From: Chlorobiota bacterium
Lineage (GTDB): Bacteria > Bacteroidota > Ignavibacteria > Kapaibacteriales > NICIL-2
Direction: 5' to 3'
DNA: 64,000 bases
NCBI GenBank assembly: GCA_044228285.1
Contig: JBGAVD010000002.1
Coordinates: 545,653 to 609,652 of the forward strand
A program made the position numbers and the translations under genes. A model generated the notes under the pieces. It saw only the letters and a program-made list of their open reading frames with translations. It was not told the origin of the DNA and ran no database searches. This document shows, in pieces, positions 11,301-62,312 of the stretch. How positions within the stretch are numbered: position 1 is the stretch's first letter; the number at the start of each line of letters is the position of its first letter.

Positions 11301-11815
11301 CCGGCTGACCCATTTGGTGGAAGGCTCGAAGGAATGACTCCGCTTGCTAGCTTTTCAGCGCTTATAGAATTGTCGGCGATGTTGATTGATTGAATTGCAT
11401 TAACCGCCACAGCGTTTGCAGAATCTGCAATACCAGCACGCTGTGAGTAGAGAGCGTAGGGCACAGCAGTCAATTGAGTCCGCGGCATCATTTCATCGTT
11501 GCTGGCTACTGAAACACCTAAAAAGTATGGACGGTTGAATGTGATGCTGTTTGGTATCGGAACCTGAGAACCTATGATGAGGCTAAAGATTCCTTTGATA
11601 ACGGAGGCGCGGTGCGCCTCCGTGTAGATAGGATCGGTAGAGCCCATAGTGGTGTATAAGCGCAGAGTAATGAGATACTCCCCATCTGGAAAGAGAGTAC
11701 CATCAGTTCTTACTAGCATTCCTTGATAGGAAATGTTACTCGGCACCTTCGCACTGAGTTGAATCGTGCTTGATAACAAGGCAATGAAAAGTACTATGCT
11801 GGAAGTCTTCAACAT
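5357..11815 (-). CDS. Giant (2152 aa) secreted repeat protein, adhesin or tail-fibre-like, with YadA-head/Hep_Hag-like 14-residue beta-roll repeats
   Basis: Signal peptide MLKTSSIVLFIALLSSTIQLSA. The N-domain starts ISYQGMLVRTDG...LRLYTT. It is followed by ten ~58-aa tandem repeats (KLAxGxxPxxLPPxGxAGGDLxGxYPNPxIAxxAVTNxKLAxNAVxTxNIQDAS). Then come four ~330-aa units, each ADNxxxGGNKRG + (ASGxYSxVxGGxxN)n + TAVFNNVDFWLTNNDxxxRxLRFYE...ANQVLxTDGSGxLGWT. No T9SS CTD at its own C-terminus. Confidence 0.85.
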   Translation of the reverse strand: MLKTSSIVLFIALLSSTIQLSAKVPSNISYQGMLVRTDGTLFPDGEYLITLRLYTTMGSTDPIYTEAHRASVIKGIFSLIIGSQVPIPNSITFNRPYFLGVSVASNDEMMPRTQLTAVPYALYSQRAGIADSANAVAVNAIQSINIADNSISAEKLASGVIPSSLPPNGSAGGHLTGSYPNPSLAPGSVTNTALSQNAVETTNLRDASVSSGKIADGSVTREKLAPGLLPTRLPPDGAAAGDLSGSYPNPSIAAAAVTNSKLATNAVGTANIQDAAVTSAKLSPGLLPTTLPPSGVAGGDLSGLYPNPTIAASAVTNSKLAQNAVQTTNIQDGSVTSSKLAAGVIPSSLPPAGSAGGDLVGSYPNPSIANEAISNAKLSINAVASYNMQDASVSTRKIADEAVTLAKLAPGVLPNALPPNGAAGGDLNGSYPNPTLSNASVTSSKLAPNTVGTVHIVDSSVTTQKLANGSVNATKLAVGVIPSTLPPSGAAGGDLAGSYPNPIVANNSVNNAKLTTNAVGTSNLQDASVTSAKLASGVLPTSLPPSGSAGGDLSGNYPNPLLANNAVTNSKVAANAIGTANIQDASVTSSKLASGIIPTSLPPNGAAGGDLSGTYPNPTVGTAVITNAKLASNAVSTTNIQDASVTIAKLATGVIPTTLPPNGAAGGDLSGTYPNPTVGTATITNAKLANNAVGTLNIQDASVTSAKLATGVIPSALPPSGTAGGELNGSYPNPTIANSAVTSSKLAAASVTADKIHSMGATAGQVIKWNGTSWIPGSSGFQFLEEKRDTLTPNDSVPAHALRAFGTAANIDLVLKPKGNGALSSHTADNTEVGGNKRGSYAVDFQRWRDDPTEVASGIYSTLLGGRSNTARGDLSTVCGGFGNKALNQYSAICGGAGNRVESLGGLIGGGTSNFIGPNADMSVVSGGSGNSIYGSHSVIIGGFQNSILSRNSTILGGTNAIIQFPADHSVVYNGSHQVQQCDFSIATPRTFAVNNVDFWLTNNDNSPRTLRFYEKYNSPGLFPNGNVNYVAFKAPNNITDDVEWTLPNSDGTANQVLKTDGSGHLGWTTVSSSSAVSSVNVSGGNTGLTASGGPITSSGTITLGGTLGISSGGTGATNQNGAISNLLPSQSGNGGRVLTTNGTSVSWQVAGGSSLSFWAESRNTSGPNTAVPVHQLRAVGSETRIDLALTPKEDGAICAQVADNTDAGGNKRGGFAVDWQMDRLFPEMVSSGFSSTISGGQSNTASGLGATVSGGYWNESSGDNSTVSGGGKNISSNEASTVGGGYDNVSSGFASTVSGGRLNTATAEFSAVCGGNGNRVRGMYSTIVGGGHLELDSAAEHSFGFNGDGTGELAKSMIISSHHTAVFNNVDFWLTNNDGLNRSLRFYEQDSATGNFPNGANYVGFKAPPVIPSDLVWTLPSSDGTANQVLRTDGSGNLGWTSLNSNTLSYFSESRNTSTPNTTIPVHQISATGTETNIDIAITPKGTGALCTQRADNSSNGGNKRGAFAVDLQRGRTSASQVASGESATISGGWANTSASLHSSVGGGFVNSILSSADGATIGGGLYNNIASYNLIEGKASTIGGGIQNVIQGYASTIGGGDTNTSMGTYNVIAGGAHNLALSTGSTVCGGTYNSAAAEWSTVLGGSNLTLDSLAMHSIGFNGDNDALTKPISITTARTAVFNNVDFWLTNNDGQTRTLRFYEQNENVGPFPNGKNYVALKAPNSLSADLVFTLPDSVGTSGQVLTTNGSGAMNWSTPTFSLQHIAESLHSTAPNATTNVVQLRPTTTGDIDLALSPSGSGAILAQVPDNAIDGGNKRGSMAVDWQMIRSSASQVASGLYSVLSGGAQNLVSGDYAVVTGGEHNSSDGNHSSVGGGAQNNASGSYSVLGGGRQNVASGYSATVCGGLQDTASGVSSVVCGGESNTASGPYSCVVGGYLNSVAADNATVLGGARMTLENSAAGSIGFNGSTSSTVKPISISQSQTAVFNNVDLWLTTNDNSPRSLRFYEKYNTTGAFPNGTNYVSLKAPDSIATDIQFSLPASTPTSSDRMLTSSTSGAMSWGRQVLQFLDQTIDCPTIAASGGTAYVDLTVSGAVVGSTVHLSPREDMEDGICIASVRVSATDTVRIKFVNATASAVNPQAVNIDLSIIQP
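5620..9580 (-). repeat. Coding repeat: four diverged ~1-kb (≈330-aa) units inside the giant gene
   Basis: Four blocks each contain GGNKRG, Gly/Ser-rich 14-residue repeats and the near-invariant AVFNNVDFWLTNND...LRFYE...FPNG.NYV..KAP motif. Boundaries are approximate. Confidence 0.65.
9600..11440 (-). repeat. Coding tandem repeat: ~10 copies of a ~174-nt (58-aa) unit inside the giant gene
   Basis: Ten successive G[STLN]YPNP motifs at ~58-aa spacing in the translation. Boundaries are approximate. Confidence 0.7.
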
Positions 11816-17837: not shown

Positions 17838-20360
17838 TTAGCGATCAACGACCAGTTTTCCGCTCACAAGGTCCTCACCAAGTTGGAGCGTATATATGTA
17901 GGTGCCGTTTGCGACGTGGTTGTTTGCTGAAGCATCCCATCGTGCCAGGTAGTTCCCGCTGCTTACACGTGCATGGACAACCGTAGCCACACATTGTCCT
18001 TGAGAGTCGTAAACCTTCAATGTACACTCTGCACCTTCGCGATTCTGAGGGACGATAAAAGCAAAGAGAGCCGAGCTGCGGACTGGGTTAGGAGACACAA
18101 AGCTTTGAACTGTGCTGGTCACTGAGTTTTCAATGACATCCATGACAAGATTGGCTCCTGGGCTTTGCAGTTCACCAAGTGTATCAGTCATGTAGAGTCG
18201 TGTCAAACTCGGACGCATGGATGTAGAGTGGTACAGCTCTGACCATTCTTGGTCCGATAAGCGCTGGAAATTCTGAGTAACATACTCATAGTAACTATAA
18301 ACGGGTCCAAAGTATGCCGTTGAGCAGTCGTCAATATCTTTGGCTATTACTACTGCTAAGTTTGGTGCACCAGTTGCAACATGTAAGACCTTACCTACAA
18401 GGCTCCCACTTTCGTCGGAAGGTTGCGTGTGAACATCAGCAACACAGAATCCTGTTTCAAAACTCTTCAACACATGTGGATTCATGCCATATTGAAGCTG
18501 AGGGTAGTATCCTCTGTAGTAGACAATATCACAGTCAGATTCTTTCGATATCCAATTGGATATCAACTCTTCATCATCAGTGCTAAACGCAAGGTGCATG
18601 AGTTCCTTGTCTGCAAGCGACGCAAGTCTTTCACATATCTGTGCCATCGTTCTTAATGAGGAGTGCAGGCTGGGACTAAGGTCTTTAACATAACAAGAGT
18701 CTACTATGGGTTCCAGACGCGTGCAGATTGCAGACAAACGCCGATACAGAGACGGCATCGGTTCCACGTAGCCCTTAGGATAGAAGCAGGCTGATATTGT
18801 TGTGTAGGGTTGCTTTGCATACAGTAGATAGTCATGTCGCAATTCCGCCCACGCAGCAAGTTGGGTATTCAGATTCTTTTGCCACCATGCTGCTGTTTGC
18901 ATATGTAATGGAAGTGATGCACGTAGCCCTTCTGTAGGCGGATTCAAATGTCGCAGAACGTCCAATCGTGAAGTGTACACAGAGTTATACCAACCATCTT
19001 GCACATACGAATCGATCATATACCGTATTGCTGCAAGATTCGGAGCGTAAGAATAGCGATTCACATCGTCCGCTAAATATTGCAGTGCAGCATTGTTTCC
19101 CAATGCGAACATTGCATCAAGTGGTTTTGGCATCAAGCGTAACTTAACTTGATCCGCAACGAGCTGTCCAAAGACGTAAGAATCAATAACAAAGCGCTGC
19201 CCTAAGAAAAGAAAAGCAGGCGCTGGTTTGACGGTGTCTTTACCGTTTGATTCTAAGAGTTGACTCAATATGCGTTGTTCGGCACCTGCATCTCGTGCCT
19301 GTTTCTGAAAGAGCAAGAGGAGTGAGTCATTAGACATTGATGAAACACTCAGTTTATTACTCTCGATAATTGATAAAAGGTCTGCTTGTTTCAGATTGTC
19401 TTGCGGTCCAGCAAATGCTTGAATACACTTGTCAACGAGTGAATAGTGAGCTTCATACGCGCCCGATCGAAGCAAAAGTGTGCTCAAGTAAATCGACAAG
19501 GCGCATTGACGTCGTATGTCTGCATCAGAAACTTGGGATGCACTTATTGGTTTCTCGATGTAGATCTCCGTTCGCCCAAGCCACATCATTGCCTTGAAAT
19601 AGGATGGCAATCTGGATGGAGTAGGCTTGTCATAGTGACCACGAAGCTTGAACATACTCCAATCAACCAGCCTCCATGATTGTGAAAAAAGTTGAACAGA
19701 GCTCGGCTGTAATAACTCAATTGCCTGAAGCAAACCATCCATCTGGCTACTATTCTCTGTGTAACATGGACTGATGGTTGCAGTATCGTGCTCATTTAAG
19801 AGCTTCAGTGCCATGCATAGATACAGATCCGCATCTAAACTCGCTTGCAGACTAAGAGAGTCGGTAGGAGGTAGTTGCTTGTCGGACAAAAGGATAGAGT
19901 GCATTGCGCGCAGAGTAGTATCAAGATGATAGGACAGCGAATGCTGCTCGAGATCACTTAAGATGTTGTCAAAGCTTGTGTGCGTCGCATTGAGAATGGC
20001 ATCAGAAGAAATAAAAACAGGCAAATCCTTTCTGTAGATATCGTAAAACCAAGCGTTGAAGTCTGGTTTTTTCAATCGATCACTAACAACAAAACTATGC
20101 TTCTCGAGAAGTGCTTTCTCTCCACTCGTGAACTTATACTTCGTATCACCCATGTCAAAAAACTGGGCTGTGGAGAGATCAGCAGGAGCGCTCTTTAAAA
20201 AGCTGCCTGCGTCGAAACGCTGTTGCAAATCTTTGTAGTCGTAGTTCTTCGTCGTGTCAAGAAAACGCTTGTATGCGCTTACATCGAACTGTGAACGGAC
20301 GGTGACCGTTGATATGCAAAGCGCGCACATCAGAATGAGGGGAACACTTAAAGTCTTCAT
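17838..20360 (-). CDS. Large secreted protein (840 aa) with T9SS C-terminal sorting domain. The N-terminal domain is unassigned.
   Basis: Signal peptide MKTLSVPLILMCALCISTVTVRSQ. C-terminal ~85 aa (...PNPVRSSALFAFIV...YIYTLQLGEDLVSGKLVVDR) are a type-A T9SS CTD. Confidence 0.75.
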   Translation of the reverse strand: MKTLSVPLILMCALCISTVTVRSQFDVSAYKRFLDTTKNYDYKDLQQRFDAGSFLKSAPADLSTAQFFDMGDTKYKFTSGEKALLEKHSFVVSDRLKKPDFNAWFYDIYRKDLPVFISSDAILNATHTSFDNILSDLEQHSLSYHLDTTLRAMHSILLSDKQLPPTDSLSLQASLDADLYLCMALKLLNEHDTATISPCYTENSSQMDGLLQAIELLQPSSVQLFSQSWRLVDWSMFKLRGHYDKPTPSRLPSYFKAMMWLGRTEIYIEKPISASQVSDADIRRQCALSIYLSTLLLRSGAYEAHYSLVDKCIQAFAGPQDNLKQADLLSIIESNKLSVSSMSNDSLLLLFQKQARDAGAEQRILSQLLESNGKDTVKPAPAFLFLGQRFVIDSYVFGQLVADQVKLRLMPKPLDAMFALGNNAALQYLADDVNRYSYAPNLAAIRYMIDSYVQDGWYNSVYTSRLDVLRHLNPPTEGLRASLPLHMQTAAWWQKNLNTQLAAWAELRHDYLLYAKQPYTTISACFYPKGYVEPMPSLYRRLSAICTRLEPIVDSCYVKDLSPSLHSSLRTMAQICERLASLADKELMHLAFSTDDEELISNWISKESDCDIVYYRGYYPQLQYGMNPHVLKSFETGFCVADVHTQPSDESGSLVGKVLHVATGAPNLAVVIAKDIDDCSTAYFGPVYSYYEYVTQNFQRLSDQEWSELYHSTSMRPSLTRLYMTDTLGELQSPGANLVMDVIENSVTSTVQSFVSPNPVRSSALFAFIVPQNREGAECTLKVYDSQGQCVATVVHARVSSGNYLARWDASANNHVANGTYIYTLQLGEDLVSGKLVVDR

Positions 20361-21077
20361 GGGCTGACCTCTTAGAGTGCAAAAAGAGCAAAACGATTTG
20401 GTCGAGTGACCTGCGCTTAATATAGGGCAACAAAGGTTGATAAAGCATATCGGTTCTCACTATTTATCTCTCATTGCTTATGCTAAATTCTGGCTTGCGT
20501 CCTGCCAGTGGCTGAATTCGATGTTGCCCAAATCGAGTACGGGTCAGAATTGTGAGAACCAGCGTCATAGCCTTAATATGACGCAACTCCTGAATTGCGC
20601 GCCACACATTACCACCTTGTCGAGTCTATGCCGAGCTAGCGATTCGCTATGAGCTAACTACGCTTATGTAACACATTTCTGCTATCTCGAGTTCACCTAC
20701 AATTGAGAGCCAAAGTTTGCTACGATGCACTTGAGGCCAATTGATTGTGAAGGACAGTTACGATTTGAGAGGTTAAATTGCGTCTATGAGTTCGAGTAAA
20801 GTTAAGCTTAGTTAAGGCTGTCGTCAGTTCAGCAACAGTGAGTATGAACCGATGGTTTTGGCGCTACACCGAATCAATTCTAGCGAAGTGCAGAGTCTTT
20901 CAGAAGGCCTTGGGTATAGGATAGCATTCCAACATCTGAAGCGTTGAAGTGGCAATGTTAGGACTTTGTTGCAACCAGCTGAAGTGAATCGCAAAACTAC
21001 CAACAAGAGTTAGTTGCTTGATGCGCCTTTGCAGGCGCAAACTCGAGAAGTAAGGATATCAGCAAAGTAACGTTGAG

Positions 21078-22685
21078 ATGAACCATACAGACCCCACGCA
21101 ACAGAACAACAGTCAAGAGAATCAGACGATTGAAGAGTTTCCCTCAGAGTCAGAGACTCACGTAGGTATGCGTCAACATGATCCTTCTGAAGAAGACGTT
21201 GTGCATGCAACAGATGAACAAGTAAGCGAACACAGATTAAAGACTAAAGATCATTTCTTCACGATTTGCACAGAGTGCAAAGGAAGAGGCAGTTTGCGAG
21301 TGAAGCTTTCGAAGAGGCTGAGGCGCCGTTATCACAATGCAATGCGTTCCTTCGAACAAGGAATAGGCGATAGTCAAGCTCCTGAACGTCCAAAAGGTTC
21401 GCTGCATACTTGTCCATACTGCAAAGGCAGCGGATTAACGAGTGCTATGAGCACTCGCAAAGCCGACGAGATTCGCTTTCCGAAAGTTGCCATCATTGGT
21501 GCAGGCATTGGCGGTGTTGCCTTGGCGGTAGCCTGCTTGCATCGAGGGATACCATTTACATTGTATGAGCGCGATAGTGGTTTTAATGTGCGATCACAGG
21601 GCTATGGACTCACTTTACAGCAGGCGAGTAATGCCATCAAGGGACTAGGACTCTTCTCGCTCGATGAGGGCATCACCTCAACTCGCCACGTCGTACAAAA
21701 CACGGATGGTGAGCTCATTGTTGAGTGGGGAAGACGTGTGAGTGTTCCTAATGATGAGCAGAAGCTAGCAAAGCGATTTAACATTCACATACCACGACAA
21801 ACTCTGCGCCATGAGCTGTTGAAACAGTTGCCGGATCAAGAAGTGGTACAGTGGGGACACCAACTGGTGGATGTACAGACGACAACTGATGGAGATGCTG
21901 CTCTGCGTTTTGAGGTGAATGGTGTACTCAAAACCGAGAGAGCAGATTTGGTGGTCGGTGCTGACGGAATTCGAAGTGTCGTACGAAAACTCTTGATTGG
22001 CGATGAGGTCTGTGCACTTCGCTATGTTGGTTGTATCGTAATTCTAGGCATCTGTCCGTTGGATCAACTTCATGGCTTTGAGCATCAGCTACTCGATTCG
22101 AAAACGGTCTTTCAAACGGTCAATGGTTTTGATCGAATGTACATGATGCCATATACAGCAGATTCCGTGATGTGGCAATTCAGTGTTCCAATGTCTGAAG
22201 CCGAAGCCCAGCGTCTGAGCGCTGAAGGTCCGCAAGCACTCAAGGAAGAAACCTTGCGTCGAACACTATGGAGTGCGCCTGTTCCACAAGTAATTGAAGC
22301 TACAGATATCTCGCTGATTACTGGCTATCCAGTGTATGATCGACCAGTGTTAGCAGCAGAAGCTCTACAGGGCATGGGTTCCGTTACTCTGATCGGTGAT
22401 GCTGCACATCCTATGAGTCCTTTTAAGGGACAAGGTGCCAACCAGGCACTACTTGATGCGCTAGCCCTCTCACGTAGAATGTATAGCGTGTATAGTGAGC
22501 ACAAGCAGAAGGGAGAAGTCGATATACGTACCACAGTACTCAGCGAGTTTGAAAACGAGATGCTTCGTCGTACTGCTCCCAAAGTACATGACTCAGCAGA
22601 AGCAGCTCTGCTGCTTCATTCAGCTAGTGTTCTCCGAGAGGGTGACAGTCAGAAAAGACGCGGATTGCAACGTGTAGCTGGATAA
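21078..22685 (+). CDS. FAD-dependent (class A flavoprotein) monooxygenase with N-terminal DnaJ-type zinc-finger-like extension
   Basis: Rossmann GxGxxG (IIGAGIGGVALA), DG motif (VVGADGIRSVVRK) and GD motif (LIGDAAHPMSPFKGQGANQALLDA). The N-terminal ~130 aa carry two CxxCxGxG motifs (CTECKGRG, CPYCKGSG). Confidence 0.8.
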   Translation: MNHTDPTQQNNSQENQTIEEFPSESETHVGMRQHDPSEEDVVHATDEQVSEHRLKTKDHFFTICTECKGRGSLRVKLSKRLRRRYHNAMRSFEQGIGDSQAPERPKGSLHTCPYCKGSGLTSAMSTRKADEIRFPKVAIIGAGIGGVALAVACLHRGIPFTLYERDSGFNVRSQGYGLTLQQASNAIKGLGLFSLDEGITSTRHVVQNTDGELIVEWGRRVSVPNDEQKLAKRFNIHIPRQTLRHELLKQLPDQEVVQWGHQLVDVQTTTDGDAALRFEVNGVLKTERADLVVGADGIRSVVRKLLIGDEVCALRYVGCIVILGICPLDQLHGFEHQLLDSKTVFQTVNGFDRMYMMPYTADSVMWQFSVPMSEAEAQRLSAEGPQALKEETLRRTLWSAPVPQVIEATDISLITGYPVYDRPVLAAEALQGMGSVTLIGDAAHPMSPFKGQGANQALLDALALSRRMYSVYSEHKQKGEVDIRTTVLSEFENEMLRRTAPKVHDSAEAALLLHSASVLREGDSQKRRGLQRVAG

Positions 22686-23625
22686 GGGAATTGTTGTGGT
22701 AGCTACGCATTCACTACGAATTCACTTTCCTTGCGGTACCTGGTGCTTCTGTGAAATGCTGGTACCTCGCATGGCTCTCGGATCTTTGGGCTTTGGAGAA
22801 TAAATGAGTCACATCTCTTTCTCACTCTCAGCGATTCAAGATCAACAGTAGCGCAGAGGAAGAGAGAATCCGTCGACGTTTACATATAAAGTATTTTTGA
22901 GAAGCATGATGATCGATGAGGACTGGGTGTGATGTTCAATGATGTTTCAAAGCCAGCCCGCAAACGCCTCATGAATGGATTCAGGTGCAATATGAAGTGA
23001 CGCTCAGGCTTTCGAACCAACGTAATGATTGGAGCGAGCATATCGGAATTTATATACTGCAATCTGAAGCTTCTGAATGATCCGACACAGTCCCGGTGGA
23101 TGAGGTGCCACGCCGTACCGACATCTACCATTCGCAATGCATGTATCACTTTGTTTGCTGATGGAGAGGGCTTAGAAGATTCGTGATGAAGCACACAATA
23201 CAACAAACATCTCTGCTCTTCAAGCGTATCAGCAAGTCAGTGTGTTAATCCTGTGCTATTGTACACTGGTATACGAATCTCTGATATGTGTCAGGTACCG
23301 GAATTGACATCATGAGCGACACCATACATTTCAGATCTGCTTCTCAATGAGGCTTTGCGTATGACTACTTCAGTTCGCGACTAGAGTTCGAATTCTAGCT
23401 AAGGTAAAAATGCTCAGCAGAAGGGTTCAGTTCTCTGCATGACTGCCTCTGTTCCTGCTAAGAGCTAGTTGAGTGTACTGCGATGAAATGTTCTCGCTGT
23501 GTACATCTGACCGGCTGCGTTGGAACAAGAACGTCGTTTCAATAGACTATGACAATTACGAATATCTTAGAACCAAAGAGCTCTAGAGTTCTAGGCTCAA
23601 TTGGTTGTTCTCCGTCGCAACATGC

Positions 23626-25248
23626 CTACTCGATGAAAAAAGTGTTGAGAATTCCTTTACCTTTTAGCTCGATAGGACCGCGTGCCACTACCCGGAACGA
23701 TGCGTCCGATTTTGCTAACTCTTGTACAAACTCTTCAGAACAGTGAATCTTTCCTGCAATACCGTGGCTCTCTAATCGCGAGGCAAGGTTGACAGCATCT
23801 GAGTACATATCGTATACGAATCGTTCGCGCCCCACAACACCGGCAACCACCGCTCCGCAATGAAGACCAATACGAACTCCGAAATCTGAGTGATCAGGAA
23901 GATATGACTTTGCTTCCTCCGGGAGCTTGAGGGTTCGCAACATCTCTTGTGCAGCTTTGGCTAAGCGCTCTGCATGATCATCACATGGCGTTGGCGCACC
24001 GGCAACCGCCATATATCCGTCACCTATCGTCTTGATTTTCTCACAGCCATGTTCTTTCACGATTCGATCGAACACTGAAAAAATACTATCTAGTACACGA
24101 ACGATGAGCTGCGCAGGCATCGTCGCACTCATGGGTGTGAATCCCTTTATATCTGCAAAGAGGATAGAGACGCAAGGAAGATAATCGGCAATTTCGGCCG
24201 AATCTTCCATCATCCGATCAGCAATGACTGCAGGGAGAAGGCGATGAAGTAGCTCCCTCGTAGTTGAGCTTTGAGCTCGTTGAATTTCGAGTTCTTTCTC
24301 GCGTAAAGCTACTCTCCGTTCATATCCATGTTTCTGTGCCATCTGTTGAACCTCAACAGAGTTAGTCTGTTGGGTGAGCTCGTGGTATCGTTCAAAATAC
24401 TCGAGTGCAAGTTTCCATTGCTCCTGCTGTCGATGGAGCAGACTTAGTGACTGTGTGATATAGGTTTGGCTACTAAGAGATTGCATCTCAACACTTAACT
24501 CAAGCGCTTGTTCAAAATAGTGTTGTGCCGTCTGGGTGTTGTAGAGACGAAATGTATCAATCTGATAAACTTGACCTAGACTATGCAGAGCCATGATCAT
24601 GTTCCCCTTGTCGCCAATCTCCTCTGAAATCTGCAGTGCTTCCTCATACAGTCCAACACACTCTTCAAAACAGTCGCGAGAAGCCCAGACTGACGCAATG
24701 TTGGTCAGCACCAGCACTTCGCCATGCCGATCAGCAAGTTTGCGGTATTGATTCAATGATGAATCTAGATACTGAAGTGCAGCATCGTAGTCTTGTATAT
24801 GCACCCTGGAAGAAGCAAGATTGCAGAGGATGTTTGCTCTATATAACTCTAAGTTATGCTCAGTTGCTAAACCAAGAGCTTGATGTAAGTATTCATCTGC
24901 ACGGTTATAGTCGAGTATTTGGGTGTAAACATTGCCGAGGTTACATAAACAGGCAACTTGCAGGTCGGGCTGATGAAGAGTCTCTGCGCAATGCAATACC
25001 TGAGTATAAAGTGCAATTGCGTCTTTGTTTAGTCCACGAATTGCAGCAACATTAGCTTGCTGGTTCAGCACTCGAGCTTGAAGTACTAGGTATTCATCTT
25101 GTACTTTCGACTCATTGCTGGGCATAGCTATCTCGATTTCGTTCAGCGCTCGAGAACACAAGTCCATGGAATCATCGAGTTCTCCCCGTTGTTGTGCGCT
25201 TCGCGCTTCGCTGATCAACAGCTCTATTTTGTTTTTGACATCCATCAT
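23626..25248 (-). CDS. TPR-repeat protein fused to a class III adenylate cyclase catalytic domain
   Basis: N-terminal TPR-like helical repeats. C-terminal cyclase motifs FADIKGFT, KTIGDGYMAV, RIGLHCGAVVAG(VVG). The Lys in KTIGD suggests ATP specificity. Confidence 0.85.
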   Translation of the reverse strand: MMDVKNKIELLISEARSAQQRGELDDSMDLCSRALNEIEIAMPSNESKVQDEYLVLQARVLNQQANVAAIRGLNKDAIALYTQVLHCAETLHQPDLQVACLCNLGNVYTQILDYNRADEYLHQALGLATEHNLELYRANILCNLASSRVHIQDYDAALQYLDSSLNQYRKLADRHGEVLVLTNIASVWASRDCFEECVGLYEEALQISEEIGDKGNMIMALHSLGQVYQIDTFRLYNTQTAQHYFEQALELSVEMQSLSSQTYITQSLSLLHRQQEQWKLALEYFERYHELTQQTNSVEVQQMAQKHGYERRVALREKELEIQRAQSSTTRELLHRLLPAVIADRMMEDSAEIADYLPCVSILFADIKGFTPMSATMPAQLIVRVLDSIFSVFDRIVKEHGCEKIKTIGDGYMAVAGAPTPCDDHAERLAKAAQEMLRTLKLPEEAKSYLPDHSDFGVRIGLHCGAVVAGVVGRERFVYDMYSDAVNLASRLESHGIAGKIHCSEEFVQELAKSDASFRVVARGPIELKGKGILNTFFIE

Positions 25249-27523: not shown

Positions 27524-29404
27524 TTAGAATATCGTATATAGTATCAATAGTGCGAGAACTGTTCCCACAACGACGGCAGCAAAGCCGAAGAGGCGCAAGC
27601 CAATTTCTACTGGCAGTGGAGTAGGTTTGGTGACCACGTAGTCCTTTGTGTTGCCGGTTTCATTGTAGCGTTTCCATTGGTCCATTCGTTCATGTCGCAT
27701 TTCCTCCTCACTGATTTGACCATTGAAGATGACGAAATCCATAGGGAATTTCTCTACTCGTAGGTGCGTGTTAAAGAAGTGAATCGTAAAGATGAATCCT
27801 ACAGCGAGGAGTGCTTCGTCGGAGTGGATGATGGTTGCTACATTAAACACCCAACCAGGTAAAAAACCTCCAAAGAACTCAGGCATCCATAGTATGAGAC
27901 CACTTGAGCCGATAACGCCGACGCCCCAGAATACAGCCAGAAAGTCAAACTTCTCCCAATATGTCCAACGATCAAACGTTGGCTTTGGCCCTTTGAAAAA
28001 GAACCACTTAAACATTGCGATCATGTCGCGAAGATCGCGACGGTTTGGAAACAGGCTATCAGGTCCAAACAAACGCTGCAACATGGTCTCTTTCGGCGCA
28101 CGCTTCGTGATGAGGAAGCGTATACTCATGCCGAGTGTGACAAAGAAGTATCCGAAGGTGACAACGGCTGCCAGACGGTGGATGAGACCAGCCGAGGCAA
28201 CACCGCCGAGAAGGTCCATGAGTGCATGTCCCCATTGGGTCTCGTTGAACTTCAAGGGTAGACCAGTTATAGCAAGGGTTAAGAAACTTGTGATGACAAA
28301 AATGTGGAGGATGATGTGTATTGGACGGAAACGACGATACACTTTCTGCGCTGCATGCTGTTTTGTTACTTCGGTGGCTGCGCCACCGAAGAGGGCTGCA
28401 TTGGCAAGATGCTTCTTCTCAACAAAGCCTCGATACATCCATAGTAATGAGTGCAACCAGAAGAATAGAAACGTACCAGCCAGTAATCCATTCATGCTAA
28501 TGGTCACCCAAAAGAGCAGAGGATTGGCTTGTCGGTTCCCAGGTTCAGCATGCGGAAGGTATTTGGCAAAGCCGTTACCTGCATCCTTATGACACTGCCG
28601 ACAGGTCGTTGTGAGGTTGTTAGGATGTATCGATGAATGAGGATCATCCTTTGGGAGAATCTTGTGCGACTCATGGCAATCACTACAACCAGCAACTTGT
28701 TCAGGATGACCTAGGCGAACGTTCTTGCCGTGGTAGCTTTCGAAATACGAAATTGGTGCGATTGTGGTGACTTTGTTACGCGCCATTTTATCGGCATCAG
28801 CATGACACTTTAAACACGCTTGAGTATGAAACATGCGGCCTTGCTGGACGTTGTCTATGCGATCGATGGCGTGCAAACCATGGCAATCCACACAGCCCGG
28901 AGCATCCTTACTGCCTTCTTTTATAGCTTTGAAGTGACTCGATTCGAAGAAGGACGATTGCTTGTCATGACATTGAGTGCAGAGTTGGGCAGTGGCAATT
29001 TTGTCGTTCTTGATGGAGCGTAAGCCGTGTATCTCCGAGTGACACTTAGCGCAGGTAATTGGCAGACGTTTTGAGTTGTGTACGCTTTTCTCGTGATCGT
29101 TGACCACAGAAGAGTGGCAGCTCACACACTGTGTTGGCTTGAATGAAGCAACGCACTTCTTGTCTGTACCCTCCGCTGCAAATGGAGCCTTAGTGTGATC
29201 TTCGATATGGCATGCTGCGCATTGCAGTGACTTGTGTACTGAGCTGTTATATAAAGCAGAGTACTTATGATCACCATGGCATTTCTGACAATCTGAGTTT
29301 GACTGCGTATGTGTTTGAGTGTTCTGCGCACGCGTATTGGTACCGCTCATTACAAGTATCACCAGGCAGGCGGCTAGTTTCGAGAGTTTGGATAGTACTG
29401 ACAT
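27524..29404 (-). CDS. Nine-heme c-type cytochrome fused to a membrane dihaem cytochrome b (FdnI/HydC-like) domain. CbcL-like quinol oxidoreductase.
   Basis: Signal peptide MSVLSKLSKLAACLVILVMSG (internal ATG at 29404; the ORF is open to 29491). Nine CxxCH motifs (CQKCH, CAACH, CVSCH, CAKCH, CTQCH, CVDCH, CLKCH, CSDCH, CRQCH). The C-terminal ~330 aa have at least four hydrophobic helices with conserved His, resembling the b-type cytochrome of formate dehydrogenase or hydrogenase. Confidence 0.8.
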   Translation of the reverse strand: MSVLSKLSKLAACLVILVMSGTNTRAQNTQTHTQSNSDCQKCHGDHKYSALYNSSVHKSLQCAACHIEDHTKAPFAAEGTDKKCVASFKPTQCVSCHSSVVNDHEKSVHNSKRLPITCAKCHSEIHGLRSIKNDKIATAQLCTQCHDKQSSFFESSHFKAIKEGSKDAPGCVDCHGLHAIDRIDNVQQGRMFHTQACLKCHADADKMARNKVTTIAPISYFESYHGKNVRLGHPEQVAGCSDCHESHKILPKDDPHSSIHPNNLTTTCRQCHKDAGNGFAKYLPHAEPGNRQANPLLFWVTISMNGLLAGTFLFFWLHSLLWMYRGFVEKKHLANAALFGGAATEVTKQHAAQKVYRRFRPIHIILHIFVITSFLTLAITGLPLKFNETQWGHALMDLLGGVASAGLIHRLAAVVTFGYFFVTLGMSIRFLITKRAPKETMLQRLFGPDSLFPNRRDLRDMIAMFKWFFFKGPKPTFDRWTYWEKFDFLAVFWGVGVIGSSGLILWMPEFFGGFLPGWVFNVATIIHSDEALLAVGFIFTIHFFNTHLRVEKFPMDFVIFNGQISEEEMRHERMDQWKRYNETGNTKDYVVTKPTPLPVEIGLRLFGFAAVVVGTVLALLILYTIF

Positions 29405-29429
29405 TGTGCAAATCCAGAATGAATAATGT

Positions 29430-30626
29430 TTAGCCGCAGAGTCCGCCCGCGCGTTTCTTGGAAGCAATCTTAATTTTCTGTACGTATGCATCTTTCGGGA
29501 ACTGCTTTAAGATCTCCGATGGAGGTGCTGCAATGTTCACTTTGTGTCCAGCTACGGTTTTGCCGGCAAAGAGTGAATTCCAGTTCGTTAGGCCTTTCTC
29601 AAGGATGTAGAGGTTTGCAACACCTTGAACCTTTAGATACTCCCAAGCTTTAACTGCTACAGTTTCATTGTCTGAAACAAGGACAACTACGCCTTGCGCT
29701 GGAAGTTGTGCGTACGGTGATACTTTCTTCGCATCGAGAAGATCCTCGAGAGTTACGTTGAGTGCACCGTTCAGATGAAACTTCTCAAACTCATCCGCAC
29801 CACGCAGGTCTAGACACACAAGCTTGATACTTGCTTCATTGTAGGTCTTCACGTATTCGAGCGGATGTATAAACACAGCCTTTGAGCGGAGTAGTGGCGA
29901 GTAGGTGTTCTGCATGATTTCCCACTTGCGCACTGGGTCGGGTTGGCCTATGAGCCAGACGCATGCAGCTGCTAGAACGAGTGCGCCGGAACCCAGCTTA
30001 TAGGATCGTTTCGAGATTGTCCACGACATCGGTGTGTCAGTGCCACGATTTCGGAAATACTCTTCTGTTTTCTCCGCAGCGTAGAACATGACGAGTGCCA
30101 TGATCGTGACGCCGAACACGGTAGCACCAACTGACCATCCAAGCCATTCATTGAGGATGTAGCGATCGGTGAACGAGGAGTACCAAAAGTCTTCGAAGCT
30201 TGACAGAGACTCTCCGAAGATTCCTGCACCAATGACTGTTCCGATGAGAAAGGCGAGGCCGTCGATCTTGAAGCTTGCAGTTGCGACGACTGAAGTTCCA
30301 GGACAGTAGCCTCCGATGATGAAGCCAACTCCCATGATCAAGCCACCAATGATTCCTGGCCAGAGAAATGTCTGATTAACCGATAGTTGTGAGAAGTCTA
30401 AGTAGCCCAATCCCGCTGCGCCAAACGTAAGTAAACAAGCCACGATGATGCCCGTGAACATAGTTTTCAGAACCGTCATATCTTTTAGATAGAACTGCGC
30501 TGCGAGACGTCGGGAGTCTCCAAAGCCTGCAATCTCCAGGGCGAAGCCGAAGGCTGAGCCTATTAAAAAGAAGACAAAGTATCCGCCTGCTTTACCCAGA
30601 ATGCTAATGATGTCGATAGGTAACAT
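29430..30626 (-). CDS. YeeE/YedE (TsuA-type sulfur/thiosulfate transporter) half fused to a C-terminal rhodanese-like domain
   Basis: GYCPGT motif in a TM helix, a YeeE/YedE signature. After one further TM helix there is a ~100-aa rhodanese-fold-like region (...VVVLVSDNETVAVKAWEYLKVQGVANLYILEKGLTNW). The start is ATG 30626 (GGAG 11 nt upstream) or TTG 30641. Confidence 0.75.
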   Translation of the reverse strand: MLPIDIISILGKAGGYFVFFLIGSAFGFALEIAGFGDSRRLAAQFYLKDMTVLKTMFTGIIVACLLTFGAAGLGYLDFSQLSVNQTFLWPGIIGGLIMGVGFIIGGYCPGTSVVATASFKIDGLAFLIGTVIGAGIFGESLSSFEDFWYSSFTDRYILNEWLGWSVGATVFGVTIMALVMFYAAEKTEEYFRNRGTDTPMSWTISKRSYKLGSGALVLAAACVWLIGQPDPVRKWEIMQNTYSPLLRSKAVFIHPLEYVKTYNEASIKLVCLDLRGADEFEKFHLNGALNVTLEDLLDAKKVSPYAQLPAQGVVVLVSDNETVAVKAWEYLKVQGVANLYILEKGLTNWNSLFAGKTVAGHKVNIAAPPSEILKQFPKDAYVQKIKIASKKRAGGLCG

Positions 30627-30651
30627 TGTCGTCTGCTCCAAGTGTGATTAA

Positions 30652-31173
30652 TTAGTCAGCCCACAAACGGCGAACGAAGTACGCGACGGCATATCCGCCG
30701 GCAAAGACGCTGAACATGAATGCCCAGCTACCCAGAGATAGAACGGCACCTCCGGACAGTGCCTGACCTGATGTGCATCCTCTCGCTAAACGAGCACCAT
30801 AGCCCATAATGACACCTCCAACTAACGCTGCTATGATTCGTTGTGTATTGGTGATGCGTGCACCTTTAAAAATCTCTACCTTAAGTCGGCCATTGAAAAA
30901 GGCCGATGCCATACCTCCAGCAAAGGTTCCAAGCAACAAGAGCACGCTAGCATGATCGAGAGGATTGCGGTCGCCTGCTCCCATTGCCGCGAATGTTCCG
31001 ATGGCATCCACATGTGAAGACCAAACGATTTTCGTGAGCGCAACCTGAATACGACTAATAGCGCCAGAAGCGCCCAGACCACTATGGGTCAGCGCGAAGG
31101 CGCTGAAAAGCACCACTCCAAGAATGCTTCCAGCGAAGTACGGGTTCGTAACGGGTTTAGGAATCTTTTTCAT
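30652..31173 (-). CDS. YeeE/YedE family protein (other half of a split TsuA-like transporter)
   Basis: ATG start. 173 aa with 4–5 hydrophobic helices and a GCTSGQA motif, the second YeeE/YedE Cys motif. 10–25 bp from the neighbouring genes. Confidence 0.75.
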   Translation of the reverse strand: MKKIPKPVTNPYFAGSILGVVLFSAFALTHSGLGASGAISRIQVALTKIVWSSHVDAIGTFAAMGAGDRNPLDHASVLLLLGTFAGGMASAFFNGRLKVEIFKGARITNTQRIIAALVGGVIMGYGARLARGCTSGQALSGGAVLSLGSWAFMFSVFAGGYAVAYFVRRLWAD

Positions 31174-31193
31174 AATATTCTTAGCTCCTAGAA

Positions 31194-32621
31194 TTATTTC
31201 GAAGTCACTTGGACTGGATCACGACTATACCCGAGTTCTTTCCACTTGAAGCGACCATTGTCTGAATGACACTGTTGACAACTGAGTGCCTTGCTCTGCG
31301 TGGTAACCATGTGGGTAATAGGCCAGTACATTTTGGTTGGTGTAAAACCAAAATTGCCACTATATGTTAAGCCAGCGAGTGCTGAACCCTTCTTTAAGGC
31401 AGCAGCCCAGTCGAACTTAGTCCAGTAACCACCTTCTCCACTAGTGAGTGGTGGTACGAGTATGCCATTCACAAGATCAAATGGTTGTTCAGCGAAGTGA
31501 ACCTTGAAAGGCCAGATCTTAGCTTTAGCATTTGAGCGACTACCAATGGGTTTATTGATGTGGTGTACGGAATCGGCATCGAGCTTGTCGCCAAGTATGT
31601 AACGCTCCATCTTACCTGTGTACCAAGCATAAGTTGGTACTACGTCTTCCTCGTACTGAAACTCACCTTTAATCTTCAAGTACTCGTGCGGATTGTCTTT
31701 TCGCGTGGAGTCTCCCGCCTTCGACCAATCCCAAGCCATCTTGGTAGGGAGCTTGCGCGCGAACTCGGGGATATGACAGGTTTGACAAGCGATGCGCAAA
31801 GAATGCTGATTGAGGCGATGGTCTGCGTGTGGTTTCTCTGTGTGACAGTTCTCGCAACCAAATCGCGCAACCTTTGTTTCGTCGGAGTAGGTAGCATTCA
31901 CTTTTCCCGGGACAACGTGGCGCTCGGTCTTGTGACAATCCACACATTGGAAGTTGAGCTTACCCATATGATAATCCAGCTCCTGATTCGCATTCAACAA
32001 GGATTCATCCAAATCTCCGTGCTTAACACCCATACCACCTCCGCCACTGAAGTGACAGGTTCCACAGTTTTCGCGAGTTGGCCGATGAACGCTACCAGCC
32101 ACAAGTTTTAAATCCACATTCTTGTTTGGCATTCCACTACGACCTTTTGAATAGCTACCGGATCCGTCATGGCAAATCAAACAGTCGACGTTCTCCTTCT
32201 TGCTGAAATCAAAGTCTGCGTTGTCGAATCCATAGCCAGCATGGCAGGCGGAGCATGAGATCCAGTTACCAATCACACTTATGCAGAAGTTATTGACTTG
32301 GTTTTTCTTGCCTAATGGAATGGTCTTGCCATTGCGTACGGCATCACCACTAATCCAGGTCCAGTGTGCAGTTTTCATGACTTCGTCTGCTGCCTTCGGG
32401 TGACACTTCAGACAGCTCATGGTCACCTTCTGCGGAGAGTCAATGGAGTCACGATAGTAGGCACTATGATCTAAATGCGGAATCTCGCGTCCTTGCAGTG
32501 GATTCAATGCCACTGGCTTGATTGGTGTCTCAGTTCTCGCACCTCTATTGCAAGCGCTGCTCGTGAACAAGAGAACTACGGTACAACCAAACAATAGTAC
32601 GCGTGCAAGAACCGACATCAT
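31194..32621 (-). CDS. Octaheme c-type cytochrome (octaheme tetrathionate reductase/OTR-family-like)
   Basis: Eight CxxCH motifs (CLKCH, CSACH, CLICH, CGTCH, CVDCH, CENCH, CQTCH, CQQCH) in ~475 aa. Signal or lipoprotein-like peptide MMSVLARVLLFGCTVVLLFTSSAC. The start is 32621/32618, with the ORF open to 32675. Confidence 0.8.
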   Translation of the reverse strand: MMSVLARVLLFGCTVVLLFTSSACNRGARTETPIKPVALNPLQGREIPHLDHSAYYRDSIDSPQKVTMSCLKCHPKAADEVMKTAHWTWISGDAVRNGKTIPLGKKNQVNNFCISVIGNWISCSACHAGYGFDNADFDFSKKENVDCLICHDGSGSYSKGRSGMPNKNVDLKLVAGSVHRPTRENCGTCHFSGGGGMGVKHGDLDESLLNANQELDYHMGKLNFQCVDCHKTERHVVPGKVNATYSDETKVARFGCENCHTEKPHADHRLNQHSLRIACQTCHIPEFARKLPTKMAWDWSKAGDSTRKDNPHEYLKIKGEFQYEEDVVPTYAWYTGKMERYILGDKLDADSVHHINKPIGSRSNAKAKIWPFKVHFAEQPFDLVNGILVPPLTSGEGGYWTKFDWAAALKKGSALAGLTYSGNFGFTPTKMYWPITHMVTTQSKALSCQQCHSDNGRFKWKELGYSRDPVQVTSK

Positions 32622-33381
32622 TCGCTCTCGGTATGTTGGTCGGAACTCTTGTTGATTTATCATGCGTGTTCTCATAAGTCACCTTTGTTGGAAGGGGAGT
32701 GTCTTTGATTCATGCTGGTCTTCGAAAGAGGCATGTTATCGCCATGGAGATGGGTCATGACATTCTCACGAATGCCAGTTTTCAGATTCATAGCAGGGCG
32801 TTGCCCGCTTGTCTGCGATCCCGATGGGTAAATGCTCGTTAGACTTCGCAGTGTTGTTGAAAATACCTGTGCACTAAAAGCGGGGTGCGAATTCACTCGG
32901 CAAGGATCTGTTGCGGCGAATAATAGCTCGTGTTGATATCTTCTGAGCCTTCTTTTGCTGTTTAGGGAGAGTATGGGAAACGGAACCTTCATTTCATCTT
33001 TCCGGGCTCGAGTTTGTAAGCAGAACTATCGACCAGAAAACTAATTAAGATAATTTTGTCCTAAAATATGCAATAGGTCAGAAAAGAACGAAGAAAAGTT
33101 TTCAATAGCAAGTCTGCAGCATCGAACACCCGGGTAGCCGAGACGCCATTCTGCCGAACTTAGATTGTGAAGTCGAGCATACATTGCTGCTCTGTGTAAC
33201 GAAACATGGGGTCGCTGGCTTCTAAGTGCTTATAAAGATAGACACATAGTTGCCTTGAAAAGCTTGGTGCTGAACGTGAACAGGTCTCTTACTCATTTTA
33301 CGAGTGTGTAACTGAGATTGAATGGACTATGCGAATTCAACCTCTAGTTTTCATTATCAGATTGCACATCACAAAGTTCTT

Positions 33382-54949: not shown

Positions 54950-55008
54950 GGTTCTACGATCTCTGCAAGCTTGTGCAGGAGAGTGCTCATATTTCAATTC
55001 TGTGTTTC

Positions 55009-59435: not shown

Positions 59436-62312
59436 TTACATATAGTCAGTCGTTGGAGGGCAAGCACAGATCAAAGTGCGGTCACCAACAGTGTTGTTGA
59501 CACGACCAACGGTTGCCCAGAACTTGTTGCGTTGAACGTAAGGAAGAGGGAATGCCGCCTTTGAACGTGAGTAAGAGTGCGACCATTCGTCAGCACAAAT
59601 CACTGCTTGGGTGTGAGGTGCATTCTTCAAAACGTTATCCAACTTGTCGGCAAGACCTTGCTCAACCTCAGCTATTTCTTGTCGAATGCTAATCAATGCA
59701 TCACAGAAGCGATCAAGCTCAGCCAGCGGCTCTGATTCAGTTGGCTCGATCATCAAGGTGCCTGGAACAGGGAACGATACTGTTGGAGCGTGGAAACCAT
59801 AGTCCATCAAACGCTTTGCAACATCTTCGGCCTCAATACCAGCCGCCTTGTACTTGCGCAGATCCACTATCATTTCGTGAGCACAGAAACCATTGGTACC
59901 AGTGTACAACATGTCATAGTGCTTCTCTAATCGCGACTTGATATAGTTCGCATTGAGAATTGCATATCGTGTTGCCTCGCGTAGACCTTCGCCACCCATC
60001 ATGCAGATGTATGCATGTGAGATAAGCAGAATACTTGCGCTGCCCCAAGGAGCAGCACTAACTGCGTGTGTAGACAATTCGGATCCGATAGGAACGACTG
60101 CGTGACCGGGGAGGAACGGTGCGAGTTCTTTTGTTACACCGATAGGTCCCATGCCAGGACCACCACCACCGTGAGGAATACAGAAGGTCTTGTGTAGGTT
60201 CAAGTGACAAACGTCTGCACCAATCATACGCGGACTTGTCAGACCAACTTGTGCGTTCATATTTGCGCCATCCATATACACAAGTGCTCCGTGTTTATGG
60301 ATCAAGGCACAGATGTCTTGAATGTGTTCCTCAAACACGCCGTGTGTTGAAGGATAGGTCACCATGAGACATGACAACTCGTTCGAGTACTGCTCAGCCT
60401 TGCGCTGCAAATCTTCCATATCAATGTATCCACGAGCATCGCTCGCAACAACAACAACCTTCATGCCTGCCATGACGGCTGATGCAGGGTTTGTGCCATG
60501 CGCAGAAGCTGGAATAAGTGCGACGTTGCGATGTCCCTGACCATGGTGTTCGTGATAGGCTGAAATGACCAGAAGACCAGCATACTCACCTTGAGCACCA
60601 GCGTTTGGTTGCAATGACATTGCGTCAAAACCTGTGATCTCACAGAGAGCCTTTTCAAGTTCTTCGAAGACTTGAGTATAACCTTGGGCTTGAGTGCGTG
60701 GGGCAAAGGGATGCAAGGAACCAAACTCAGACCAGGTAACAGGAATCATCTCGGTTGTTGCATTGAGCTTCATGGTGCATGAGCCCAGCGCAATCATAGA
60801 GTGCACCATAGAAAGATCCTTGTTTTCCAGGCTCTTGAGATAACGAAGCATATCGGTTTCGCTGTGGTAGCGATGGAACACTGGATGCTGCAGATACGCT
60901 GATTGCCGCTGTTGCGCTACTGGGATAGCCGATTGCAACTCTGGCACTAACTGCGCCGCGGAGCTGGCAGTTGCATTCAGTGTCGATGCCATGACCGATA
61001 ATACTTCGTTGACGCAATCATCGTCACAACTTTCGTCCATCGACAAGCCAACTTGTCCATCTGCATCATAGCGTAGATTGATTCCCTTTGCTTCAAACGC
61101 AGATCTCAACTGGTCCTGCGTGATTGAAGCTGGCAGGCTAAAGCTCAAGGTATCAAAGAAGTGCTTGTTCACACTGCAGCCGAGTTTGCTAAGACCAAGC
61201 GCTACTGTGGCAGTCATATTGTGAACGCGCTGTGCTATGGCGCGAAGACCTTCTGGGCCATGGTATACGGCGTACATAGCTGCCATATTGGCGAGCAATG
61301 CTTGCGCTGTACAAATATTCGATGTTGCTTTATCGCGTTTGATGTGCTGCTCACGAGTTTGCAATGCCATGCGCAAAGCTGGGTTGCCTTGAGCATCGAC
61401 TGAAACGCCAATGATTCTTCCGGGCATGCTTCGCTTGAAGGCATCTTTTGTAGCAAAGAATGCCGCATGTGGTCCACCATAGCCCATTGGTACACCAAAT
61501 CGCTGCGCGGAACCTACTGCGATGTCAGCCCCAAACTCGCCAGGGGGAGTGAGGAGACAGAGAGACAGCAAATCACAGACAACACAAACAGTGATACTAT
61601 GACTGTGCGCTGCTTCGCAGAAGGAGCGATAGTCTTGAATTGTACCCTTCGCATCTGGATACTGCACAATAGCACCAAAGAAACTATCATCGAAGCTGAA
61701 GCTACTGTGATCTCCAAGAACGATCTCAACGCCAATAGCTTTGCAGCGGGTTCGAAGCACGTCGAGAGTTTGAATAAACACGGTGCTCGAAACAAAAAGC
61801 TTGTTCTGGTGATCTTTTGCCAATGAGTGCATGAGGTGCATCGCCTCCGCAGCAGCGGTCGCCTCGTCTAACAAAGAGGCATTGGCAATCTCCATACCTG
61901 TTAAGTCCATGACCATCGTCTGGAAATTTAAGAGTGACTCCAATCGACCTTGAGCGATCTCAGCTTGATACGGTGTGTATTGAGTATACCAACCTGGATT
62001 CTCTAATACGTTCCGAAGAATAACAGTAGGGGTTAAAGTGCCATAGTAACCAGAACCAATGAGAGAGCGGGTTTTGGCATTGAGAGCGGCTTTTTCACGA
62101 AGTGTTTGTAAGTACTCTGTTTCACCTTGGCCTACTGGCAACTGCAATGGACGTGGACTGCGAATGTTCGAAGGAATTGTTTTTTCAATGAGCTCGTCGA
62201 TGGACCCAAGGCCAATCTGCGAGAGCATTTTTTGAGTGTCGTTGGCGTTTGGGCCAATGTGACGTTGCACAAAACGGTCATGTCGAGGAAAAGACGAAAG
62301 GTGCTCGCTCAT
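59436..62312 (-). CDS. gcvP: Glycine dehydrogenase (decarboxylating), single-chain P-protein of the glycine cleavage system
   Basis: 958 aa, with colinear similarity to GcvP throughout (N-terminus [10 protein letters not shown]...; PLP-Lys region ...[25 protein letters not shown]). Confidence 0.95.

Follow-up and report, generated by a model that had tools for sequence, protein, structure and literature searches.

Few oxygenases have been studied as well as the group-A flavin monooxygenases. These enzymes are normally self-contained; NAD(P)H reduces them directly, with no need for an electron-transfer partner. Described enzymes such as Tet(X), AbsH3, PhzS, HpxO and NicC combine a single Rossmann domain with the GxGxxG, DG and GD fingerprints and have no N-terminal module of four cysteines (Cys4), and typical members of the Pfam family PF01494 are encoded in catabolic, biosynthetic or resistance clusters. 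CxxCxGxG knuckles are known from the DnaJ cysteine-rich domain, from DnaJ-like zinc-finger proteins of plastids such as BSD2 and from anti-TRAP (RtpA; PF15777, Protein Data Bank (PDB) entry 3lcz), a stand-alone, oligomerising protein of 53 amino acids (aa) with two such motifs and one Zn bound per chain. Here we describe a gene on a 64,000-nucleotide stretch of a Chlorobiota bacterium genome (contig JBGAVD010000002.1; the whole stretch is called the window below) that joins two such knuckles to a flavin monooxygenase in one polypeptide. We favour, with moderate confidence, the reading that the protein represents a distinct group-A monooxygenase clade with an integral Cys4 module of ~75 aa, which would form a structural, single-zinc ribbon presenting a basic docking surface.

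A Cys4 module fused ahead of a flavin monooxygenase

The gene is a single open reading frame (ORF) in which an acidic leader, the Cys4 module and a catalytic domain that binds flavin adenine dinucleotide (FAD) follow one another. The features, all on the + strand, are the following, with the evidence for each in brackets; AF2 stands for AlphaFold2.

21078..22685, +: whole gene, putative zinc-ribbon / FAD monooxygenase fusion, 535 aa, stop codon included (ORF list, PF01494)
21078..21248, +: acidic leader, aa 1-57; net charge -9, predicted to be disordered, lineage-specific
21249..21482, +: conserved N-terminal Cys4 module, aa 58-135 (invariant Cys, Gly and P135; AF2; module profile)
21267..21290, +: knuckle 1, CTECKGRG, aa 64-71 (sequence; Cys and Gly invariant)
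21291..21362, +: basic segment and predicted amphipathic helix, aa 72-95 (model helix 79-94, charge counts)
21411..21434, +: knuckle 2, CPYCKGSG, aa 112-119 (sequence; C112, C115, G117 and G119 invariant)
21483..22682, +: group-A flavoprotein monooxygenase catalytic domain, aa 136-535 (PF01494 at aa 136-479, Foldseek)
21498..21515, +: GxGxxG dinucleotide-binding fingerprint GAGIGG, aa 141-146 (G141, G143, G145 and G146 invariant)
21957..21977, +: 'DG' fingerprint GADGIRS, aa 294-300 (G294, D296, G297 and S300 invariant)
22395..22460, +: 'GD' fingerprint GDAAHPMSPFKGQGANQALLDA, aa 440-461 (residues 440-445 and 447-462 invariant)

Within the Cys4 module, hairpin-knuckle 1 is followed by the basic helix, a loop, hairpin-knuckle 2 and a linker. 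An earlier note, made from the sequence without database searches, had pointed out both CxxCxGxG motifs, which a direct reading of the sequence bears out, and had assigned leader and module to positions 21078-21480, a span that is accurate and ends just before the first strand of the Rossmann fold (beta-1, aa 136). Its further claim, that the module is fused ahead of the Rossmann fold of a class-A flavin monooxygenase, is supported by the single ORF and its PF01494 match. The pattern C..C.G.G occurs only twice in the six-frame translation of the window (127,996 residues; 0.36 occurrences expected from composition), and both occurrences lie inside this ORF, 48 aa apart, with 29 aa between the second motif and GxGxxG.

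The fusion is a stable property of a whole family. The 120 best database homologues (477-510 aa, 57-61% identity) cover the window protein from ~aa 55 to ~532 in a single frame, and both strict motifs are present in 119 of them, with a motif spacing of 48 aa in 116 of these 119 and a distance of 29 aa from motif 2 to GxGxxG in 117. In an alignment of 79 homologues, from which all invariance figures given here are taken, C64, C67, G69, G71, C112, C115, G117, G119 and P135 are invariant, and a near-invariant Trp (W61) precedes the first CxxC knuckle. Scanning GTDB with one genome per species, we found at least 585 loci that encode a relative; in each of the best 80, which we examined further, and in the window's own gene, the four Cys are in frame with the catalytic domain. 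Since the frame is shared in all of these loci and the four Cys are conserved, both outcomes on which the earlier note would have abandoned the fusion, an upstream part that is a separate ORF or Cys that vary among homologues, fall away.

We also examined whether the module occurs elsewhere, using a module-only profile (80 residues, alignment A2) against 1.84 billion representative proteins. This search returned 114 matches, of which 45 continue from the module straight into a Rossmann motif and 56 are fragments ending short of the Rossmann position; the remaining 13 are mostly visibly frameshifted copies of the family, the others being DnaJ-type repeat proteins and unclassified short sequences. 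FAD_binding_3 lies directly behind the module in every long match tested, and the short module matches are contig-end fragments or frameshifted copies. No convincing case of the module with another partner domain, or standing alone, was found among the 114 matches, and the module occurs essentially only ahead of this FAD monooxygenase. In one representative protein of 468 aa (P0145), a ParB helix-turn-helix domain (PF17762, E 2e-35) comes after the module and the N-terminal half of the FAD domain, an arrangement that probably reflects a chimeric assembly or an erroneous gene call and not a genuine domain order.

No Pfam or NCBIfam model, PDB entry or paper was found for the combination of a Cys4 module with a flavin monooxygenase. 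The statement in the earlier note that no characterised hydroxylase is known to carry this N-terminal module agrees with our searches, which turned up neither a characterised enzyme nor a solved structure, a curated family or a publication with this architecture.

Distribution from bacterial phyla to diatoms

The best 80 loci include Flavobacterium and other Bacteroidota, several metagenome-assembled genomes (MAGs) of Chlamydiota (Parachlamydiales, Waddliaceae and Rhabdochlamydiaceae), Oceaniferula (Verrucomicrobiota), and MAGs labelled Cycloclasticus, Piscirickettsiaceae and Marinomonas. A further search, started from matches with long N-terminal extensions, added homologues from the diatoms Seminavis, Epithemia, Conticribra, Mayamaea, Cylindrotheca and Chaetoceros, together with an Opitutaceae/Lentimonas clade; these diatom and Opitutae proteins retain the four Cys and the basic helix, though Gly positions and spacings drift. 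Identity is 57-61% among bacterial phyla and 41-49% to the diatoms. No close orthologue of the window protein was found in the database, the best non-self match being 61% identical.

In a rough neighbour-joining tree, the diatoms are placed beside the Opitutae, and the window protein is a deep sister of a Bacteroidia-centred clade in which the Chlamydiota, Gammaproteobacteria and Oceaniferula sequences are nested, a pattern that suggests transfers. Two separate loci of Flavobacterium sp. ZT3R18 (L051 and L062) encode members, so that paralogues exist in some Flavobacterium genomes. Four diatom-type homologues (P0229, P0194, P0231 and P0212) have N-terminal extensions of 90-190 aa ahead of the module, and at least one of the four begins with a signal-peptide-like stretch ending in SAS-F, which resembles diatom plastid-targeting presequences. 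Orthology to plant EMB2421-type or other named eukaryotic proteins was considered and rejected: the named eukaryotic matches are all diatoms, with uninformative names, and the remaining ones are unnamed or MMETSP/EukProt transcripts.

The catalytic domain

Judged by its sequence, the catalytic part is a bona fide group-A flavoprotein monooxygenase, for which an NAD(P)H- and O2-dependent oxygenation is predicted. Its match to PF01494 (FAD_binding_3) at aa 136-479 scores 77.4 bits against a cut-off of 22 (E 1.6e-21), and the GxGxxG, DG and GD fingerprints, the last of which starts with GDAAHP (aa 440-445), are all invariant among the 79 homologues. A Foldseek search with the full model retrieved AbsH3 (6n04), 4hb9, Tet(X) variants, TrlE, PhzS, NicC, HpxO and PqsL at E-values of 1e-20 to 1e-23 and 21-26% identity, none of them covering the Cys4 module; TM-scores on the target were 0.70-0.78 for AbsH3, Tet(X), PhzS and HpxO, for a query model whose mean confidence is only 70 (see below). 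The window protein thus shares with the Tet(X), AbsH3, PhzS, HpxO and NicC enzymes the catalytic fold, the three fingerprints and the single Rossmann dinucleotide-binding domain of a PHBH-type fold, with no separate NAD(P)H domain, and differs from them by its N-terminal module.

None of the NCBIfam equivalog or subfamily cut-offs was reached, the top model being PRK07538 (112 bits against 400). The candidate assignments that we tried were rejected on their NCBIfam scores: HpxO (103 bits against 500), Tet(X) (62 against 750), UbiH/Coq6 (Ubi-OHases, 52 against 225), salicylate hydroxylase (salicylate monooxygenase, 65 against 446) and 3-hydroxybenzoate 6-monooxygenase (PRK08163, 73 against 459). 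Zeaxanthin epoxidase, likewise a group-A FAD monooxygenase of plastid-bearing eukaryotes, is the name given in one source record, that of the Seminavis robusta homologue P0236, and in no other listed homologue. This assignment was rejected for missing features (no FHA or other extra domain in the Pfam scan); the window family, moreover, also occurs in bacterial hosts including Chlamydiota, and no carotenoid connection was found.

The C-terminal tail (aa 514-535, 22617-22682) is marked by a conserved motif that reads LHS..VL.EGD..RGR in the bacterial proteins and FLHTDIAIQEGNVTRGAA in those of diatoms. Despite this motif, aa 521-535 are predicted with a confidence of only 42-44; the tail may pack against a partner or against the active site.

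Predicted fold of the module and its kinship to DnaJ

AF2 run on the 79-sequence alignment gave a full-length model with a mean predicted local distance difference test score (pLDDT, the confidence referred to above) of 70 and a predicted template modelling score of 0.71, in which aa 60-135 reach a pLDDT of 81-88. The predicted elements are a strand (60-63), knuckle 1, a strand (72-74), the helix (79-94), a Pro-rich loop between the knuckles, a strand (109-111), knuckle 2 and a strand (120-123). Each CxxC would thus sit at a beta-hairpin turn, which points to a zinc-ribbon arrangement. The isolated module is predicted to take the same fold (pLDDT 82), and the linker (aa 126-135), which has a pLDDT of 64 when the module is modelled alone, reaches 85-86 in the full-length model, a gain suggesting that it packs on the catalytic domain.

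The top Pfam matches for the module are PF00684 (DnaJ_CXXCXGXG) and anti-TRAP, both sub-threshold: PF00684, whose cut-off is 32.7 bits, scores 18.3 bits with the full protein and 22.9 bits with the N-terminal part, and PF15777 scores 17.9 bits against 32, with the NCBIfam RtpA model NF058604 at 15.5 bits against 65. Foldseek with the isolated module placed BSD2 (6ekb, E 0.16) and DnaJA2 (7zhs, E 0.64) at the top and DNAJA3 (2ctt, E 7.6) lower, none of them significant. Comparing the module profile with PDB sequences, we found E. coli DnaJ first (1exk, E 0.014), in an alignment that touches each of its four repeats, and anti-TRAP second (3lcz, E 0.095). A rubredoxin domain was considered and rejected, with no rubredoxin family matching in Pfam at E up to 10 and a Gly register of CxxCxG; the rubredoxin register is CxxCG.

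PMC7865324 defines the DnaJ-like zinc finger by four motifs forming two fingers. The DnaJ domain correspondingly has four CxxCxGxG repeats and two centres, whereas the window protein has only two repeats, implying at most one metal centre, and has a basic helix-loop of ~40 aa between its knuckles. It also differs from DnaJ in having no J domain or chaperone context, and in the fusion of its module to an oxidoreductase. The label 'DnaJ/BSD2-type' used in the earlier note therefore fits only in part: the CxxCxGxG consensus, with each knuckle at a predicted beta-hairpin turn, is shared with the DnaJ cysteine-rich domain and BSD2, but the PF00684, Foldseek and 1exk matches are all sub-threshold, and the domain differs from that of DnaJ in its two motifs and in a basic insert of ~40 residues that DnaJ lacks. 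The domain-profile search that it had proposed did return PF00684 as the top Pfam match, but below the cut-off. On the sequence, then, 'DnaJ-type' describes the knuckles and not the domain. Anti-TRAP also shares the two CxxCxGxG motifs, which lie 13 aa apart in the alignment as against 48 aa here, and it stands alone whereas the module in the window is fused.

A conserved basic helix and a lineage-specific acidic leader

The segment between the knuckles is strongly basic throughout the family. For aa 72-95 the family consensus is KKSRRLSKKVRLRYQIALDQFEKT, and diatoms keep the basic helix, for example as SRKARLRHKRAK. The net charge of aa 64-95 is +8 in the window protein and has a median of +6 over 79 homologues (range +2 to +11), that of the window's whole module (aa 58-135) is +9, and the net charge of the catalytic domain ranges from -16 to +11 among homologues. 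Among the roles proposed for the module, the conserved basic helix favours docking.

The acidic leader of ~60 aa described in the earlier note is present, with 13 Asp and Glu against 4 Lys and Arg in aa 1-57 (net -9) and a pLDDT below 50, but it is not part of the module: it is missing from all homologues, in which the first Cys is typically preceded by 11-14 aa, against 63 here. The leader's in-frame codon-usage score (0.105) resembles that of coding windows (mean 0.215, sd 0.098) and not that of off-frame windows (mean -0.405) or of the DNA upstream of the gene (-0.498), and such coding-like usage indicates that it is probably translated. An in-frame stop at 21051-21053 leaves the ORF open from just 24 nt before the ATG, and the shortest alternative start (GTG, V42) still lies upstream of the Cys4 module. 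By comparison with the homologues, the leader is specific to this Kapabacteria-like genome and lies outside the conserved module. Its charge of -9 mirrors the +9 of the module, which allows for the speculative possibility that it masks the basic module intramolecularly.

Genomic context

The gene stands alone between two genes on the opposite strand, separated from them by unusually long, non-coding spacers of 718 bp upstream (20361-21077) and 940 bp downstream (22686-23625):

17838-20360, -: DUF3160 protein, 840 aa
23626-25248, -: tetratricopeptide repeat (TPR) class III adenylate/guanylate cyclase, 540 aa

No Rfam family, excess of sigma-70-like promoters or intrinsic terminator was found in the spacers, in which a search for the Bacteroidota -7 motif was uninformative. 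Unlike typical PF01494 members, the gene is not placed in a catabolic, biosynthetic or resistance cluster. We called and clustered ORFs in the 80 homologous loci and the window, and found no neighbour conserved across phyla in these 81 loci; the commonest neighbour family occurs in 13 of them, all Flavobacterium relatives, in which the neighbours are SusC/TonB-type and lipoprotein genes. Median intergenic gaps on the two sides of the gene are 245 and 170 bp over the 80 loci. In the Cycloclasticus (L025:4997-5887, -) and Piscirickettsiaceae (L078:5000-5890, -) MAGs, a divergent RluA-type pseudouridine synthase (PF00849) lies beside the gene; it is the only RNA-related neighbour seen, in effectively one lineage.

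Elsewhere in the window, a full-length glycine dehydrogenase GcvP (59436..62312, -; TIGR00461, 1436 bits) is 73-74% identical to Candidatus Kapabacteria / Kapaibacterium proteins, its nearest relative being 82% identical; these identities make a Kapabacteria-like member of the Bacteroidota/FCB group the probable source of the window. A cluster of multihaem c-type cytochromes with Cytochrome_C7/c3, MtrC-like and Cytochrome_cB domains occupies 27524-32675 (-), with a sulphur-transport/rhodanese protein (29430-30641) between the cytochromes, and an ORF at 5357-11815 (-) encodes 2152 aa. Large ORFs at 36048-37925, 38161-39714, 45824-48301, 49326-51773 and 52391-55012 had no NCBIfam match at E 1e-10 or better. 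A protein identical to the cyclase at 23626-25248 is encoded on a 3.6-kb Logan contig from run SRR28480386, and an exact look-up of the monooxygenase protein in the contig index gave no record.

A proposed role for the module and its alternatives

Combined, these results allow us to chart a model for the family. The four Cys would coordinate a single structural Zn(II), and the resulting zinc ribbon would resemble one of the DnaJ zinc centres in topology, the helix standing in for the other. This site would hold the two hairpins together, rigidify the module and expose the basic helix so that an anionic partner can dock on it; the partner could be a nucleic acid (RNA or DNA), a membrane with an acidic surface, or an acidic protein that carries or delivers the substrate. 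The flavin domain would then hydroxylate or epoxidise the substrate by way of a C4a-hydroperoxyflavin. High conservation across phyla, together with the absence of any operon context, suggests that the substrate is a common cellular compound rather than a catabolic or secondary-metabolite one.

Several observations weigh against this model. Of the five AF2 models, a single one reached reasonable confidence (mean pLDDT 70, as against 43-57 for the rest), and all similarities to DnaJ, BSD2 and anti-TRAP fall short of significance. The basic patch has no power to discriminate between RNA, membrane and protein partners, and synteny over the 80 loci yields no lead to a partner or substrate. Moreover, the inter-knuckle spacing in diatoms varies from 35 to 65 aa and their linker to the Rossmann fold from 28 to 63 aa, a variability of loop and linker that argues against a strictly rigid arrangement.

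The strongest competing explanation, which we nonetheless regard as unlikely, is that the module is purely architectural, acting as a cap or clamp of the FAD domain or as an oligomerisation element with no external partner, such that its basic residues are incidental or touch the enzyme's own acidic surface or the cofactor phosphates. The nearly fixed spacing to the Rossmann fold in bacteria, the gain in linker pLDDT in the full-length model and the exclusive pairing of the module with one domain all speak for such a role, as does the oligomerisation of anti-TRAP, a two-motif relative at the motif level. However, the basic character of the module is kept from bacteria to diatoms while the charge of the catalytic domain swings widely, which is unlike a fixed intramolecular salt-bridge partner, and the linker length in diatoms is highly variable.

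A docking ribbon could also be given a more specific task, in which the basic zinc ribbon directs the monooxygenase to a macromolecule instead of a small metabolite, with a base of RNA or DNA or the side chain of a protein as its target. We consider this reading doubtful; under it, the family would be a conserved, flavin-dependent macromolecule hydroxylase that had gone unrecognised and is common to Bacteroidota, environmental Chlamydiota, Verrucomicrobiota and diatoms. The Arg/Lys-rich helix, the absence of a metabolic cluster, the cross-phylum conservation and the RluA-type neighbour are compatible with this possibility and are not evidence for it.

It is also improbable, in our judgement, that the Cys4 site is a redox centre, either a rubredoxin-like Fe(Cys)4 passing electrons to FAD or a thiol/disulfide-active site, which joins or gates catalysis. 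The four invariant Cys in two CxxC knuckles and the near-invariant W61 loosely recall rubredoxin knuckles, Zn and Fe are indistinguishable from sequence alone, and PMC7865324 describes ZnJ6, a DnaJ-like zinc-finger chaperone with oxidizing activity. Yet the top motif and fold matches, DnaJ, BSD2 and anti-TRAP, are Zn proteins, and both the CxxCxGxG register and the Pfam search speak against a rubredoxin. Furthermore, a group-A monooxygenase takes its reducing equivalents directly from NAD(P)H.

Less probable still is the metal or redox sensor put forward in the earlier note, which would switch the activity of the enzyme. Cys4 Zn sites of the Hsp33 and RsrA type can act as redox switches, and the module lies directly ahead of the FAD-binding fold; however, no regulatory neighbours were found in the loci compared, nothing in the data indicates regulation, the knuckles have an invariant geometry of the kind typically seen in structural sites, and the invariant number of Cys gives no hint of tunable ones. 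Finally, an artefactual fusion, through a coincidental pair of motifs, a wrongly called start or the merging of two adjacent genes, for which one could cite the use of the longest-ORF start and a 57-aa leader with no homologue, is effectively refuted by the single frame that 80 loci of unrelated assemblies share with hundreds of proteins in the databases, by two motifs in one ORF where 0.36 were expected per six-frame window, by the invariant Cys, and by the position of even the shortest alternative start.

Implications for the family

The catalytic kind to which the window protein belongs is very well known, thousands of sequences of the family are already in public databases, and the present data hold no mechanistic surprise; what is new is the obligatory Cys4 and basic-helix module as the hallmark of an uncharacterised clade. 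Labels given to its members, such as 'UbiH-like', 'salicylate hydroxylase' or 'zeaxanthin epoxidase', are generic or misleading, which leaves an annotation gap for a clade that is large and strongly conserved, with relatives in at least 585 species-level genomes as well as in diatoms. The family points to a conserved oxygenation reaction, probably of a housekeeping type, and the module offers a concrete handle for finding its substrate or partner. Should that partner turn out to be a macromolecule, the family would constitute a new class of flavin-dependent modification enzyme.

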